Shown here: positions 13,869-21,048 of the stretch, in pieces
Layout: each line of letters starts with the position of its first letter
Position numbering within the stretch: position 1 is the first letter of the stretch
DNA from: a virus
Lineage: Duplodnaviria > Heunggongvirae > Uroviricota > Caudoviricetes
Length of the DNA: 22,748 nt
Virus record (IMG/VR): IMGVR_UViG_2671180674_000012
Location: 1-22,748 of that record
Strand: one strand, 5' to 3'
The notes under the pieces: generated by a model
Database searches by the model: none
Seen by the model: the letters and a program-made list of their open reading frames with translations, nothing else
What the model was told of the DNA's origin: nothing
Program-made: the position numbers and the translations under genes

Positions 13869-14206
13869 GAAGGAAACAAACAGAAACAACAATTGCCGTT
13901 ATCTGTTGCCACCAATGACAAGTAAACGTATCTCAGGCGAGCGCATTGCGCCGTTCTGACGCGGATACATTAGCCTGGGCAGAAGGTTCTGGCAATAAAA
14001 AATAGCGTTTTCTTATCGGTGTCGGTAAGATTGTTGCGGGTGCTTGAGGCTGTCTGCCTCGGGCATGCCACTGTAAGGCAGACAGAGAAAAGCCCCAGTT
14101 AACATCACGCGTCCTGCAAGACGCTTAACATTAATCTGAGGCTCAATCCATGCTGAACACATGTAGGTTAGCCTCTTACGTGCCGAAAGGCAAGGAGAAG
14201 CAGGCT

Positions 14207-14362
14207 ATGAAGCAGCAAAAGGCGATGTTAATCGCCCTGATCGTCATCTGTTTAACCGTCATAGTGACGGCACTGGTAACGAGGAAAGACCTCTGCGAGG
14301 TACGAATCCGAACCGGCCAGACGGAGGTCGCTGTCTTCACAGCTTACGAATCTGAGGAGTAA
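14207..14362 (+). CDS. hok: Hok/Gef-family type I toxin (HokD/RelF-like membrane peptide)
   Basis: Product MKQQKAMLIALIVICLTVIVTALVTRKDLCEVRIRTGQTEVAVFTAYESEE is near-identical to Hok/Gef peptides as I recall them; AAGGAG RBS; structured leader and own terminator. Confidence 0.8.
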   Translation: MKQQKAMLIALIVICLTVIVTALVTRKDLCEVRIRTGQTEVAVFTAYESEE

Positions 14363-16184: not shown

Positions 16185-16559
16185 ATGGGGATAGAATTTG
16201 TTTTGCCTTACCCGCCGACGGTAAACACCTACTGGCGACGCCGTGGCAGCACATATTTTATATCGGAAGCCGGTAAGCGTTATCGCCGTGATGTGGCACT
16301 TATAGTTCGCCAGCAGAGGCTGAAATTAAACCTGTCCGGAAGGCTGGCGATAACGGTTATTGCCGAGCCTCCGGATAAGCGCCGTCGTGATCTGGACAAT
16401 ATCCTGAAAGCGCCACTGGATGCACTGACACATGCGGGGTTGCTCATAGACGATGAGCAGTTTGATGAAATCAATATTGTGCGCGGTCAGCTCGTTCCTG
16501 GTGGGCGGCTGGGCGTGAAGATTTACGAAATAATGCATGACGGGCAGGTCCAAAAATGA
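16185..16559 (+). CDS. rusA: RusA-family Holliday junction resolvase
   Basis: LPYPPTVNTYWRRRG...PPDKRRRDLDNILKAPLDALTHAGLLIDDEQ matches the RusA signature; AGAGG RBS. Confidence 0.85.
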   Translation: MGIEFVLPYPPTVNTYWRRRGSTYFISEAGKRYRRDVALIVRQQRLKLNLSGRLAITVIAEPPDKRRRDLDNILKAPLDALTHAGLLIDDEQFDEINIVRGQLVPGGRLGVKIYEIMHDGQVQK

Positions 16560-17377
16560 AACTGGAAGATTTACCGAAATACTATTCCCCAAAATCGCCA
16601 GGCCTGACTGATGTATCCGCCTCGACGTCAAAAGATGCACTGAGTATCACTGATGTGATGGCTGCGCAGGGGATGACACAGAACCGGGCTGAGATGGGAT
16701 TTTCTGCGTTCCTGGGGAAAATGGGTATTAGTATGAATGACAGGGTGCGGGCAACAGAATTACTGACAGATTATGCATTAAGTCAGTGCGATCGTGTGGC
16801 GGCGTTAAGGAAACTTCCGGCAGAAATAAAACCGGCAGTGATGCGTATTATGGCTTCGTATGCTTTTGAGGATTATGCCCGCAGCGCAGCGAGTAAAAAG
16901 CAGTGCCCTTGTTGCCATGGGGAAAAATTTATTGAAAGCGAAGTTTTTACAAACAAGGTTCAGTATCCGGATGGTAAGCCGCCAGTATGGGCAAAGTGTA
17001 CAAAAGGCGTGTATCCGTCTTACTGGGAAGAATGGAAAAAAATCCGGGAGGTGGTGAAAGTTTCCTGTCCTGAATGTAAAGGGAAGGGGGAGATCTCCAC
17101 TGCCTGTAAAGACTGCCGTGGGCGTGGTGTTGCCATTCATCGTGAAGAGTCAGAAAAACGGGGTATGCCTGTTATCAGGGGCTGCCGGCGTTGTGGCGGT
17201 CGTGGCTATGAAAGACTGCCATCAACGGAGGCATTTAATGCCATATGCAAAGTGACGAGTGCTATCACGCTTGATACATGGAAAAAATCAGTGAAACGCT
17301 TTTACGATACGTTGGTGGTTCGGTTTGACATTGAAGAGGCATGGGCGGAGCGGCAGTTAAAGATGGTAACGCGATAG
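16556..17377 (+). CDS. Putative late antiterminator (Q-like) with four CxxCxGxG zinc-finger repeats
   Basis: ATGA overlap with rusA; CPCCHGEKF, CPECKGKG, CKDCRGRG, CRRCGGRG; positioned directly upstream of a promoter/terminator pair. Identity as Q is inferred from position. Confidence 0.55.
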   Translation: MKLEDLPKYYSPKSPGLTDVSASTSKDALSITDVMAAQGMTQNRAEMGFSAFLGKMGISMNDRVRATELLTDYALSQCDRVAALRKLPAEIKPAVMRIMASYAFEDYARSAASKKQCPCCHGEKFIESEVFTNKVQYPDGKPPVWAKCTKGVYPSYWEEWKKIREVVKVSCPECKGKGEISTACKDCRGRGVAIHREESEKRGMPVIRGCRRCGGRGYERLPSTEAFNAICKVTSAITLDTWKKSVKRFYDTLVVRFDIEEAWAERQLKMVTR

Positions 17378-17410: not shown

Positions 17411-17458
17411 CGCCCTAACGATGGGCGTTTTGTGCCTGACGTTAGCGTGATTTCTACA

Positions 17459-17481
17459 ACCCGCCAGCGAGCGGGTTTTTT
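17459..17481 (+). terminator. tR'-like terminator downstream of the late promoter
   Basis: Short GC stem (CCGC/GCGG, loop CAGCGA) followed by TTTTTT; an earlier hairpin CGCCC/GGGCG with TTTT lies at 17411-17431. Confidence 0.5.
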
Positions 17482-17642
17482 GTTGTGATAGATAACAACT
17501 CCAGGTGGCATTCATTAGTGAATATTAGTTAATGTGTGCTGCCATGCGTTAAAAGATGTCAATTCGTTATTGACCGATATCAAATTATGGAAAGATGAAT
17601 TTCATTACTATTGAAAATCCGTTGTTTCAATAGGTGATATTT

Positions 17643-18359
17643 ATGCATAAACTAATTAAGCTGTTTTCATTTTTTATTGCACTATCGATATCTCAGTGTT
17701 ATGCCACTAGTAATGAATTCATAAGCGCCAGTAACAGTAGGGCATTTTCATTTTTTTTGCCTACAGGGCAAGCAATGGCTATCCAGTATCTTGATGGACT
17801 TAAAAGATATTCAGCGAGTGAGATTATAGACGATTTCAATAATAATGAATTGAGAGCAAAGAAAAAGTATAAAGATATATTCATCATAAACTCAACAGCG
17901 CGGGCGATTAAGCAAGACCTTGATGATAGGTTTTTTGTTCTGCTAAGGGATGGTAATAGTGGATTTGAATCGTTTTATGCTTACTATGATAAGAAATCAG
18001 AAGGTGACTTAGAGTTTCTTAACGAAGGTGATAATGTGGAGTTTATTTGCTCCAATGTTAAAAACATCATTATGCCAAGAGCGGAATGTTTTTCTATCGC
18101 TTTAAATCTTGAATCTAAAAATATTCAGGGAAACCCTATAAGATTTTTTGATAATGCTTATAAGTTGCAAAACACTTATAAGGCTACAAAAATAACATTT
18201 ATACTTTATTCTCTTCTGAAGGATAAAATTGAAAAGGACTGCGAAGAATCTATTGAAGCATGCAACCTGGCTGCCAGGAGGTTTACGGATAATGGCGCAT
18301 TACTTGACTCCATGCTTGAACCTTATGCGGATATGTTAAGTAAAATCGGTAACAATTAA
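17643..18359 (+). CDS. Secreted protein with Sec-type signal peptide and OB-fold (tRNA_anti-like) domain; AT-rich cargo
   Basis: AGGTGA RBS 5 nt before ATG; N-terminus MHKLIKLFSFFIALSISQCYA; central region resembles the tRNA_anti-like OB-fold pattern from memory; markedly AT-rich. Confidence 0.55.
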   Translation: MHKLIKLFSFFIALSISQCYATSNEFISASNSRAFSFFLPTGQAMAIQYLDGLKRYSASEIIDDFNNNELRAKKKYKDIFIINSTARAIKQDLDDRFFVLLRDGNSGFESFYAYYDKKSEGDLEFLNEGDNVEFICSNVKNIIMPRAECFSIALNLESKNIQGNPIRFFDNAYKLQNTYKATKITFILYSLLKDKIEKDCEESIEACNLAARRFTDNGALLDSMLEPYADMLSKIGNN

Positions 18360-18829: not shown

Positions 18830-19876
18830 ATGATTAATACTGTAAAAATATCCAGTTGTGAGTTAATCAACGCTGATTGCCTGGAATTTATCCAGACCTT
18901 ACCGGAAAACTCTGTCGATCTGATAGTCACAGACCCGCCATACTTTAAAGTGAAGCCCGAGGGCTGGGATAACCAGTGGAAGGGCGACGCTGATTACCTG
19001 CAATGGCTGGACCAGTGTCTTGCGCAGTTTTGGCGGGTATTAAAACCCGCCGGAAGTCTTTACCTGTTCTGTGGTCATCGCCTGGCATCTGACACCGAAC
19101 TCATGATGCGTGAACGTTTTAATGTGCTGAACCACATTATCTGGGCGAAGCCGTCCGGACGCTGGAATGGGTGCAACAAGGAAAGCCTGCGGGCGTATTT
19201 CCCGGCAACAGAGCGCATTCTGTTTGCCGAACATTATCAGGGGCCATACCAGCCCAAAAGTGACGGTTATGCAGCAAAGGGGCGCGAGCTTAAGCAGCAT
19301 GTCATGGCCCCGCTGATTTCTTACTTTCGTGATGCGCGCGAATCACTGGGGATAACGTCAAAACAGATAGCAGAAGCCACCGGAAAGAAAAACATGGCTT
19401 CGCACTGGTTTGGTACCAGTCAGTGGCAGTTACCGAATGAGGCCGATTACAGTAAACTGCAGGCGCTGTTTGCACGTGTGGCGGCAGAAAAACACCAGCG
19501 CGGTGAACTGGAGCAGCCACACCACCAGCTGGTCAGCACATACAGCGAACTGAACCGGCAATATGCCAGCCTGCTGGAGGAATACAAATCACTGCGGCGT
19601 TATTTTTCCGTATCGGCTGTCGTTCCTTATACGGATGTCTGGACGCACAAGCCCGTGCAGTATTATCCGGGTAAGCATCCCTGTGAAAAACCGGCGGATA
19701 TGTTGCGTCAGATAATTACTGCCAGCAGCCGTCCAGGCGATTTGGTCGCAGATTTTTTTATGGGGTCGGGGTCGACAATAAAAGCGGCACTGTCGCTGGG
19801 ACGCAGGGCGATTGGCGTGGAACTGGAAGAGGAACGTTTTAATCAGACGGTCAGAGAAATAACGAAAGATTTTTAA
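18830..19876 (+). CDS. DNA methyltransferase, N6-adenine/N4-cytosine type, beta-class motif order
   Basis: DPPY catalytic motif near the N-terminus (LIVTDPPYF) and AdoMet motif FFMGSGST near the C-terminus; 348 aa. Confidence 0.85.
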   Translation: MINTVKISSCELINADCLEFIQTLPENSVDLIVTDPPYFKVKPEGWDNQWKGDADYLQWLDQCLAQFWRVLKPAGSLYLFCGHRLASDTELMMRERFNVLNHIIWAKPSGRWNGCNKESLRAYFPATERILFAEHYQGPYQPKSDGYAAKGRELKQHVMAPLISYFRDARESLGITSKQIAEATGKKNMASHWFGTSQWQLPNEADYSKLQALFARVAAEKHQRGELEQPHHQLVSTYSELNRQYASLLEEYKSLRRYFSVSAVVPYTDVWTHKPVQYYPGKHPCEKPADMLRQIITASSRPGDLVADFFMGSGSTIKAALSLGRRAIGVELEEERFNQTVREITKDF

Positions 19877-19984
19877 TTCAGTGATGATATAAGTTGTATA
19901 TTTCTGATACAGATGTATACACATATTTAAAACTGAACACCAAATATATTTTTGATGCCCACACAATCATTGTTAGTATTTGTG

Positions 19985-20008
19985 ACGACCTGAAGGTGGT
20001 CGTTTTGT
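19985..20008 (+). terminator. Putative terminator after the methyltransferase
   Basis: ACGACC/GGTCGT stem with 7-nt loop followed by a T-rich tract. Confidence 0.4.
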
Positions 20009-20433
20009 GTTCACAGGGTGTTAATACCACCGGAAAGGTCAGTGCTGACTTCCTGGTGATCAGTTTGTTGATTCAGTAATAACCGGTCAGCAGTGTGATT
20101 CCGGAAGTCAGCATTTTATGTGTGAGGGTAATTTCTGCTACCCGCACTGGTAAACAAATGAGGCATATCGTTTCAGCACTGGCGAGTTTCGCGGAGAACA
20201 GGTTTTGCAAGCGCCTTTGTCGTTCTTCATTCTGTAATATCTGACTGATTACAGTTTCGGTGCTGTTTTTTACATTGTTAACGTTGTGTATCATCGGATG
20301 GTTTTTATCAGAATGAGTCGCTGCCTGTTTCGGGGTCTGTGATTCGTCAGAATTACGTTGCAGGCTGACGAATCATTCTGGTAGTAACCATACAATTAAA
20401 CGCTGTCTAATTCTTATACGATGAATGCTTTGG

Positions 20434-20459
20434 GCCCGTCTCATGACGGGCATTTTTTT
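20434..20459 (+). terminator. Rho-independent terminator closing the repeat-rich noncoding segment
   Basis: GCCCGTC-TCAT-GACGGGC followed by ATTTTTTT. Confidence 0.5.
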
Positions 20460-20556
20460 ATCCGTGCGCAATGCCTGTTCTGTTATGGCATTTTTCATCT
20501 TTTCCCGGTTGGCTATTATTATGTTTTATTTTTCTGTATACAGGAGAATTGAGACT

Positions 20557-21048
20557 GTGATCACATATGCAGACATTCGGGCAAAGCAGGCTGAAATTCA
20601 GGAGGCCAGACAGGAGTACATCCAGCGACTGCGGGATATGGCAAAAAGGCTGGTCAAGACCTATGAAGACTCACTGGCATTGCCGAAACCACGATGGCTG
20701 GATATTGAGGGTAACTCCCATCCCTATGTTTATCTTTCTCATGATAGTTGTTGTGAGAAACCGGAGGATTTGCAGGTAGATTTTCAGGATGGGGTTACTT
20801 TTAATTTATATACGGTTGTTGATGATGATCCCCGCCAGTCTGTAAGTGTGAATATTACAGTGAGTATTCTGTTACTTGATGGCGACAACATGACGATTTC
20901 GGTTGATGGTTATCAGGCCAGGACATTTTCGCATGTGGATACCAACGCAAAAATTAATGAAGTGTGCGAATACATTAAAGACAGCATACTTATGTCAATG
21001 AATGAAGTGACGTTTGGCAAAAAATCCCTTTCAGAAGTGAAAGGGTAA
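20557..21048 (+). CDS. Hypothetical protein (163 aa)
   Basis: GTG start with AGGAG 10 nt upstream (the ORF-track start at 20425 lies inside the terminator and has a hydrophobic junk-like N-terminus); followed by its own terminator. Confidence 0.5.
   Translation: MITYADIRAKQAEIQEARQEYIQRLRDMAKRLVKTYEDSLALPKPRWLDIEGNSHPYVYLSHDSCCEKPEDLQVDFQDGVTFNLYTVVDDDPRQSVSVNITVSILLLDGDNMTISVDGYQARTFSHVDTNAKINEVCEYIKDSILMSMNEVTFGKKSLSEVKG

Follow-up and report, generated by a model that had tools for sequence, protein, structure and literature searches.

The non-coding block at positions 19877-20556 of the IMG/VR record IMGVR_UViG_2671180674_000012 (22,748 nucleotides, analysed in full and called the window below) is very probably a decayed phage tRNA operon, a 'moron' with tRNA-Thr(UGU) and tRNA-Gly(UCC), within the Q-dependent late operon of a lambdoid E. 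coli prophage. Its intact relatives present, in this order, a sigma-70-like promoter, a leader hairpin, tRNA-Thr, tRNA-Gly, two trailer domains and an intrinsic terminator; of these, the window retains the promoter hexamers, the leader, both trailer domains and the terminator. As judged from the alignments, 20043-20113 is a tRNA-Thr pseudogene and is followed by a tRNA-Gly stub (the coordinates of all features are given in Table 1). The 'long-range inverted repeat' pointed out in an earlier reading, made by a model from the letters alone (the sequence-only reading), is the leftover acceptor stem of this pseudogene. Decay of late-operon phage tRNA genes in lysogens provides an ordinary origin for unannotated, repeat-rich prophage DNA of this kind; genome annotation overlooks such tRNA remnants and starts the next open reading frame (ORF) wrongly, inside the terminator. 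If the hairpin of the dead tRNA, the leader and the trailers are functional, a sense-strand structured RNA would be added to the few RNAs at the lambdoid Stx/moron site.

Remnants of two tRNA genes and their relatives

Compared with the intact tRNA-Thr(TGT) of the relative L008, the Thr remnant is identical at 48 of 63 aligned positions, and none of 3000 shuffled sequences scores as well. In a MAFFT alignment, window positions 20044-20113 superpose column for column on tRNA-Thr. The first of the two inverted repeats falls here, with its arms TGCTGACTTCC at 20043-20053 and GGAAGTCAGCA at 20103-20113 (11 nt, 100% complementary, 49 nt between the arms), and corresponds to the 7-bp acceptor stem (GCUGACU/AGUCAGC) with three pairs added inside and one outside. 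The repeat described by the sequence-only reading is thus real, but lies 10 nt upstream of the place given for it (20053-63/20113-23). The second one, also a perfect 11-bp stem (TGATTCGTCAG at 20340-20350, CTGACGAATCA at 20365-20375), was found close to where it had been reported (20338-20376). Perfect 11-bp inverted repeats within 120 nt occur twice in 20009-20460; the mean over dinucleotide shuffles is 0.0105, and at least two are seen in 0.25% of the shuffles.

For the Gly stub, 5 of 3000 shuffles score as well against the tRNA-Gly of L008, and its flanks are homologous, on both sides, to the flanks of intact tRNA-Gly in the relatives. The stub folds as a small hairpin (-10.7 kcal/mol). The hexamer GCGGGU is present twice in tRNA-Gly, at the 5' end and in the T stem, and a deletion between these direct repeats would yield a stub of this kind. 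Both remnants therefore have the marks of tRNA pseudogenes, namely homology, syntenic position and flanks aligned on both sides. They do not look like working genes: ARAGORN calls no tRNA gene in the window, nor does an 80% threshold bring one out in 19877-20560, the Rfam tRNA model RF00005 has no match in the window at E<=10, and the minimum free energy (MFE) fold is a rod. With no cloverleaf and no match to the tRNA model, the tRNAs appear dead in the window copy, which would be expected to yield no functional tRNA. At the 5' edge of the pseudo-tRNA-Thr, CAGUGCUGA (20040-20048) can pair with UCAGCACUG (20173-20181), which can also pair with CGGUGCUG (20258-20265) at the end of trailer domain 2. 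The alternatives for UCAGCACUG are a long-range stem around both pseudo-tRNAs or the closing stem of domain 2, the latter being conserved in relatives.

Homologous intergenic regions were found in 26 of 5426 complete E. coli genomes, as well as in 13 viral contigs and 6 metagenome contigs, with one copy of the element per prophage in a constant syntenic position. Within the block, the relatives vary by non-triplet indels and in the presence of entire tRNA genes. Opposite window positions 20120-20147 in the alignment, tRNA-Gly(TCC) is called in relatives by ARAGORN or PGAP, and four of them (L008, L014, L017 and L026) have tRNA-Thr(TGT) and, immediately after it, tRNA-Gly; the tRNAs of the intact relatives reach Rfam scores of 65-70 bits. 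Among 19 distinct homologous sequences, four have both tRNAs, five have the Gly gene only, and ten have none. Some Gly copies are in between: the one of the ETEC type (L003 2777-2835) scores 23 bits against an Rfam threshold of 29, and those of L006 (3126-3199) and L009 (2922-2992), annotated by PGAP and not called by ARAGORN, lack one nucleotide of the 3' acceptor strand. The tRNA-Gly copies of the relatives are decaying independently.

Scans of metagenome and viral sequences with a 23-base terminator pattern returned only sequences already collected, and the sample available for covariation is small, at about seven sequence types. Four loci from the viral pattern scan (L015, L016, L025 and L029) proved to be unrelated and were removed after alignment, and all 120 loci listed by a gapped-pattern scan of genome contigs (L031-L150) were chance matches. 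A distant-mode search of a phage collection with window positions 19877-20560 gave no match; the same collection, queried with a relative having intact tRNAs, gave matches to the tRNA and leader part only.

Putative promoter, leader, trailer domains and terminator

The + strand of 19985-20461 folds with a predicted energy of -168 kcal/mol (z = -6.6, none of 100 shuffles as good), and every sub-domain of the block folds better than shuffled sequence. With three exceptions among the elements and types, folding is also better for the + strand than for the - strand, and nearly all of the G.U pairs are on the + strand. Across the homologous prophages, compensatory changes preserve the base pairs of the leader and of both trailer domains. 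Folding and covariation thus bear out, for the + strand, the suggestion of the sequence-only reading that this segment is a structured RNA; it does not amount to a new riboregulator standing by itself, the repeat at its core being the acceptor stem of a tRNA-Thr pseudogene. Rfam, searched both at the gathering threshold and at E<=10, has nothing for the leader or trailer domains, and these are RNA domains outside any described family; the trailer domains are present in only about 30 of the 5426 complete E. coli genomes.

Upstream of the leader, the promoter hexamers and their 16-nt spacing are kept in all types, with a diverged spacer sequence (TTGATG/TAGTAT, TTGATG/TAATAT and TTGCAT/TATTAT; TTGAAC/TATGAT in phage phi467). 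TGn stands ahead of the -10 hexamer of the window, and an AT-rich stretch lies upstream of the site. We infer from this phylogenetic footprint a sigma-70 promoter with a predicted start near 19986, with which the start of the leader hairpin coincides. The hairpin (MFE -19.4 kcal/mol, z -2.05) has a purine-rich internal loop and an apical region of about 27 nt, and ends 3 nt ahead of the tRNA-Thr position. Its two-stem architecture recurs in six types with differing sequences, with compensatory changes in five of the seven pairs of the inner stem (RNAalifold), and the hairpin is also found upstream of the intact tRNA-Thr in L008 and in the Stx phage phi467. The sequence-only reading had the segment bounded by two terminators, the left one assigned to the methyltransferase gene. 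The right one stands, and is conserved in all relatives, while the left one is more plausibly taken for the beginning of the promoter-proximal leader hairpin: its pairing is not kept in the C5, RM11911 and ETEC types and is specific to the sequence type of the window, and it is probably another way for the 5' half of the leader hairpin to pair.

Trailer domain 2, which includes an inner hairpin CUGUAAU (20232)/AUUACAG (20248), folds with z -2.3. In 12 sequences (RNAalifold and pair counts), 92% of the cells are paired and 9 of 22 pairs show changes on both sides. Five measures were compared with 500 shuffles: for four of them at most one shuffle attains the observed value, and for the last, further pair types, 20 do. 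The domain was also considered as a third tRNA on account of its four-way junction and an ARAGORN call at 60%, but it has no T-loop motif and no match to the tRNA model, and the call was taken as noise.

Trailer domain 3 is more stable (-35.9 kcal/mol, z -4.8), and encloses the 20340-50/20365-75 stem as an alternative inner pairing. The perfect 11-bp form of this stem is found only in the type of the window, the relatives having GACTCA where the window has GAATCA. In 15 sequences, 97% of the cells are paired and six pairs show compensatory changes. For four of five measures the observed value lies beyond all 500 shuffles, and for the fifth, further pair types, the domain is no different from them. 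A covariance model of this domain (R1) gives 83-108 bits on the + strand versus 28-50 bits on the - strand, and detects a diverged copy in L012 at 28.7 bits. The domain also occurs at two loci without the tRNA part (L004 and L019). A candidate promoter of its own (TTTACA-N17-TATCAG), seen in some types, was rejected, as a 14-nt insertion interrupts it in the window and L008 lacks it. The linker which follows varies between types except for GAUGAAUG, directly 5' of the terminator. The terminator itself has seven pairs, six of them G-C in the scan, and all seven are kept in 15 of 15 relatives, one of them by a compensatory change; the block thus ends with a terminator of its own, as a moron or a phage tRNA operon does.

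The mechanism proposed here follows what is established for lambda. During lysogeny, transcription from the local promoter would yield a highly structured non-coding RNA (ncRNA) with its 3' end at the U6 (20266-71) or at the terminator (20434-59), reaching up to about 475 nt if the U6 is passed. With a stop at either place, cargo and lysis genes further downstream would be shielded from this constitutive promoter. Once the prophage is induced, Q-modified RNA polymerase coming from pR' would transcribe through the whole block.

Table 1. Features of the block and of the neighbouring region, in window coordinates (aa, amino acids)
Feature	Position	Strand	Description or basis
Sigma-70-like promoter	19952-19979	+	-35 TTGATG (19952-57), 16-nt spacer, -10 TAGTAT (19974-79)
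Terminator-like hairpin	19984-20014 (scan: 19984-20004)	+	ACGACC/GGTCGT, then UUUUGUGUU; terminator scan
Leader hairpin	19987-20040	+	Outer stem GACCU/AGGUC, inner stem GGUGGU/ACCACC
Pseudo-tRNA-Thr	20043-20113 (homologous span 20044-20113)	+	Alignment to the tRNA-Thr(TGT) of L008
tRNA-Gly(UCC) stub, about 28 nt	20120-20147	+	Best alignment: T arm and 3' acceptor strand
Trailer domain 2	20174-20271	+	Multi-branch, closed by CAGCACUG/CGGUGCUG, then U6 (20266-71)
Trailer domain 3	20305-20384	+	Imperfect hairpin of about 25 bp, arms CAGAAUGAGUCGCUGCCUG/CAGGCUGACGAAUCAUUCUG
AU-rich linker	20385-20433	+	Mostly single-stranded by folds; alignment
Intrinsic terminator, strong	20434-20459	+	GCCCGUC-UCAU-GACGGGC, then A and U7
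Antiterminator Q (PF03589)	16556-17377		Pfam match
241-aa ORF	17634-18359	+	Between Q and methyltransferase
N6/N4 DNA methyltransferase	18830-19876		

Stability of the dead tRNA-Thr and competing explanations

The pseudo-tRNA-Thr of the window folds into a 29-bp rod of -32.7 kcal/mol (z -5.8 to -6.2). The dead tRNA-Thr of the ETEC type is likewise a rod (-31.4 kcal/mol, z -7.0), and the one of the C5 type has -21.6 kcal/mol (z -4.0 to -4.6), compared with -22.3 kcal/mol and z -1.6 for intact tRNA-Thr. When random substitutions and indels were applied to the intact tRNA-Thr sequence, this simulated neutral decay reached the observed energies in a fraction of only 0.0002-0.0006 of 5000 runs, or 0.013 with the acceptor stem fixed. 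The excess stability suggests either selection for a hairpin RNA or a mutational bias which extends palindromes.

Several points weigh against decay of a tRNA operon as the whole account. Plain decay leaves the excess stability of the dead tRNA-Thr hairpins unexplained, as it does the purpose of the covarying trailer domains, which have no conserved promoter of their own and no Rfam match. In addition, the promoter-like site agrees with the consensus at only 8 of 12 positions and is missing from the list of the promoter scan, and the lysis genes lie outside the window, so that the argument for their insulation leans on the relatives.

It is possible, and we put it forward tentatively, that the tRNA-Thr body was reshaped into a long hairpin which has since been maintained, and which together with the leader and trailers makes up a functional structured RNA, that is, an exapted ncRNA. 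This would be an extension of the decayed-operon reading, not its exclusion. Possible roles are an element for processing by RNase III, RNase P or RNase E, or for stabilisation, within the late transcript, or a regulatory RNA or sponge derived from the trailer. The rod z-scores of the decayed types, far below that of the intact tRNA, and the rarity with which neutral decay attains such energies are in favour of exaptation, as are the preference for the + strand in nearly all cases, with its G.U pairs, the covariation of the leader and trailers, and the occurrence of trailer domain 3 without the tRNA part. So are paired changes in the acceptor helix between the decayed types, from A-U to G-C at position 5 and from U-A to A-U at position 3. 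However, the decayed types share derived features and therefore stand for one or two evolutionary events instead of three, the helix of the L022 variant has two mismatches, and template-switch mutation at a quasipalindrome could extend a 7-bp inverted repeat without any selection. The T/G-rich composition of the + strand also inflates its G.U pairing, and the element is rare in the genomes and contigs searched. The more specific proposal of an ncRNA of about 475 nt, composed of the dead tRNA-Thr hairpin, the leader and the trailers, expressed from the old tRNA promoter in lysogens and having a function of its own, is to be viewed with somewhat greater doubt; its function might lie in the processing or stabilisation of late or cargo transcripts, in insulation of the lysis genes, or in a sponge or decoy action. 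Such an RNA would exemplify the exaptation of a phage tRNA gene into an RNA element of another kind. The helices predicted at 20043-20113 and 20305-20384 are 25-29 bp long and may be candidate RNase III hairpins (at least about 20 bp of near-continuous double-stranded RNA, cleaved by the enzyme).

The site itself raises a different question, since a moron position between pR' and the lysis genes is where the ncRNAs STnc100 and AsxR/AgvB are located (Tree et al. 2014, PMC4104026). The 3' end of the block (about 20382-20461) could be an Hfq-binding small RNA (sRNA) of this site, either an anti-sRNA of the AgvB/AsxR kind or STnc100/EcOnc27, and it shares with them its location 3' of pR' and 5' of the lysis genes, an AU-rich variable stretch, and the conserved GCCCG...CGGGC-U7 terminator after it. 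Weak Rfam matches are obtained to AgvB (14.6 bits for the window, 22.4 for L008) and to the 3' end of STnc100 (11.7 and 18.5 bits), but these scores are far under the gathering thresholds (56 for AgvB, 47 for STnc100) and come mostly from the terminator, as do the weak matches to RprA and others. The same tool readily finds AsxR (88 bits, - strand) and STnc100 (207.7 bits, + strand) in Sakai Sp5, and at gathering thresholds a scan of the whole window returns sok only. Moreover, AsxR is antisense to the late transcript (PMC4104026; Sakai Sp5), whereas the element of the window is sense, and no conserved promoter is found just upstream of it. A convergent pair with an AsxR-like antisense transcript of 51-60 nt was looked for as well, and the block has no convergent terminator or partner, its terminator being in the sense direction. 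We consider this explanation quite improbable; membership of the AgvB/AsxR and STnc100 families is largely refuted, with scores under gathering and AsxR not among the matches listed (Rfam ids of the families: RF02076 for STnc100, RF02703 and RF02702 for the AsxR/AgvB group). The prophage sRNA svsR (PMC12803456), located at the 3' end of cI, is unrelated.

Still less probable is an element acting at the level of DNA, either an array of protein-binding sites, with the GGTCAG cores and repeats as operators, or a small mobile palindromic element. The perfect 11-bp inverted repeats would fit such an element, as would the short direct and inverted repeats which flank the block (19901-14/20531-45 and 19914-33/20523-42). 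Pairing is kept through G.U pairs, however, which are valid on one strand only, there is a single copy per prophage in a constant syntenic position, and the tRNA ancestry accounts for the repeats. The recurring GGTCAG cores and the binding array put forward by the sequence-only reading did not hold up: the hexamer occurs just twice in the region (20037 and 20085), with no local array, and is enriched across the whole window (17 copies against 8.4 expected). Both copies lie within structural parts which have counterparts in relatives, one at the junction of the leader hairpin and the other in the variable/T-stem region, where it corresponds to GGTCACCAG of the intact tRNA-Thr.

A remnant of a coding gene, or a featureless spacer, is hardly credible and is ruled out by the alignments: the longest ORFs, of 73 aa (- strand) and 49 aa (+ strand), have no Pfam or other family match, in agreement with the earlier statement that no convincing ORF is present, RefSeq leaves them unannotated in the EC11 copy, the relatives differ by non-triplet indels and have tRNA genes at the same place, and the fold z-scores and covariation are strong. 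The sequence-only reading had named as an argument against itself the discovery, by alignment to related prophages, of a decayed coding gene. Decayed genes were indeed found; they are tRNA genes, not coding ones, and the objection applies in spirit.

Known phage systems and the surrounding prophage

The closest known system is that of the late-region tRNA genes of lambdoid and Stx phages, such as ileZ-argN-argO in Sakai Sp5 and 933W and the Thr and Gly genes in phi467. Like those, the block is situated between Q/pR' and the lysis genes, beside cargo and in the same orientation. In phi467, stxAB and holin S flank a module comprising promoter, leader, tRNA-Thr and tRNA-Gly. The block descends from these same two tRNA species, and in the relative L008 the module of promoter, leader and tRNAs has 91% identity to that of phi467. 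In contrast to this system, the tRNAs of the window are dead and its lineage has two extra trailer domains, which are absent from 50,697 phage records searched. The block is a decayed member of these phage-borne tRNA clusters, and not a new riboregulator or binding array. The phi467 trailer, from tRNA-Gly to holin S (L158 2750-3040), is a chain of long hairpins (z -4.3), whose arms UAUGAAUGAUCGC/GCGAUCAUUCAUA recall the arms CAGAAUGAGUCG/CGACUCAUUCUG of trailer domain 3. Homology between this domain and the long hairpin of phi467 was considered because both have GAAUGA...UCAUUC arms, and was rejected as the R1 model does not detect it.

Lambdoid morons are reportedly inserted units with their own promoter and terminator inside the late operon. 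The block resembles them in being compact, in running from a promoter-like site to a strong terminator, in its mosaic distribution and in the short repeats at both ends; it differs from a typical moron in that its cargo is RNA instead of protein and is now inactive, and its promoter is putative. With STnc100, which is about 200 nt long, it shares the sense strand, a structured RNA and a terminator at the end. Unlike STnc100, AsxR and AgvB, it has no detectable homology to the group (11.7-22 bits versus 47-56), no convergent antisense partner, and a tRNA origin. In Sakai Sp5, STnc100 (+ strand) is convergent with AsxR (- strand) downstream of stx2B, as described (PMC4104026).

Structured RNAs from the spacers and trailers of tRNA operons offer another comparison. 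By analogy, the 3'ETS-leuZ sponge of E. coli and the phage T4 stable RNAs C and D, from the tRNA cluster, are co-transcribed 3' of tRNAs and end at the operon terminator, as the trailers of the block would; apart from the tRNAs themselves, nothing similar in sequence to the T4 tRNA region was found. Minihelices made of a tRNA acceptor stem and T arm are a known kind of short helix, and the remnant of the C5 type, a 12-bp helix formed by the acceptor stem together with some of the T stem and separated by 5 nt from an intact tRNA-Gly downstream, is similar to them. It lacks a CCA end and a canonical T loop, however, and in the window the corresponding structure is a 29-bp rod and the downstream tRNA is lost.

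The window is a mosaic lambdoid prophage of E. coli. The block occupies the late-operon site of lambdoid cargo, where Stx phages have ileZ-argN-argO and stx. It has the antiterminator gene Q on its 5' side, and holins and an endolysin follow on the 3' side in EC11, C5 and other relatives. Directly 3' of the Q gene, two terminator-like hairpins (17411-17427 and 17458-17477, + strand) are plausible tR' terminators of a short pR' transcript. The 241-aa ORF has a weak OB-fold (tRNA_anti-like) match (E 4e-4, below the Pfam threshold); at its position EC11 has a reverse-strand ompC-like porin and other relatives have a CPBP protease, which shows swapping of cargo at that site. Between this ORF and the methyltransferase lies an ORF of 65 aa. 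On the 3' side of the block, the order is an ORF with its best start at GTG 20557, TerB and DUF3927, and in the locus of E. coli strain EC11 (NZ_CP027255, 4893070-4893780), which is 99.7% identical, as in other relatives, TerB, DUF3927, holins and endolysin are found downstream.

In the identical EC11 locus, RefSeq starts the downstream hypothetical protein at ATG 20443, within the loop of the terminator hairpin, and the C5 annotation likewise places its start 5' of the GTG. The GTG at 20557, with AGGAG at 20542-46 ahead of it, is the more plausible start; the product (163 aa) has no Pfam match. The whole block is flanked by the near-identical short direct repeats TTTCTGATACAG and TTTCTGTATACAG (19901-19914 and 20531-20545) and by a 20-nt inverted repeat, 80% complementary (19914-19933/20523-20542), and these could be mosaic or insertion boundaries of the tRNA unit. 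Elsewhere in the window, the antisense RNA sok (RF01794) has a full-length match at 14038-14212 (+ strand; 114 bits against a threshold of 59), which indicates that the prophage carries a type I toxin-antitoxin locus of the hok/sok type, and hokD is annotated at the corresponding position in strain C5.

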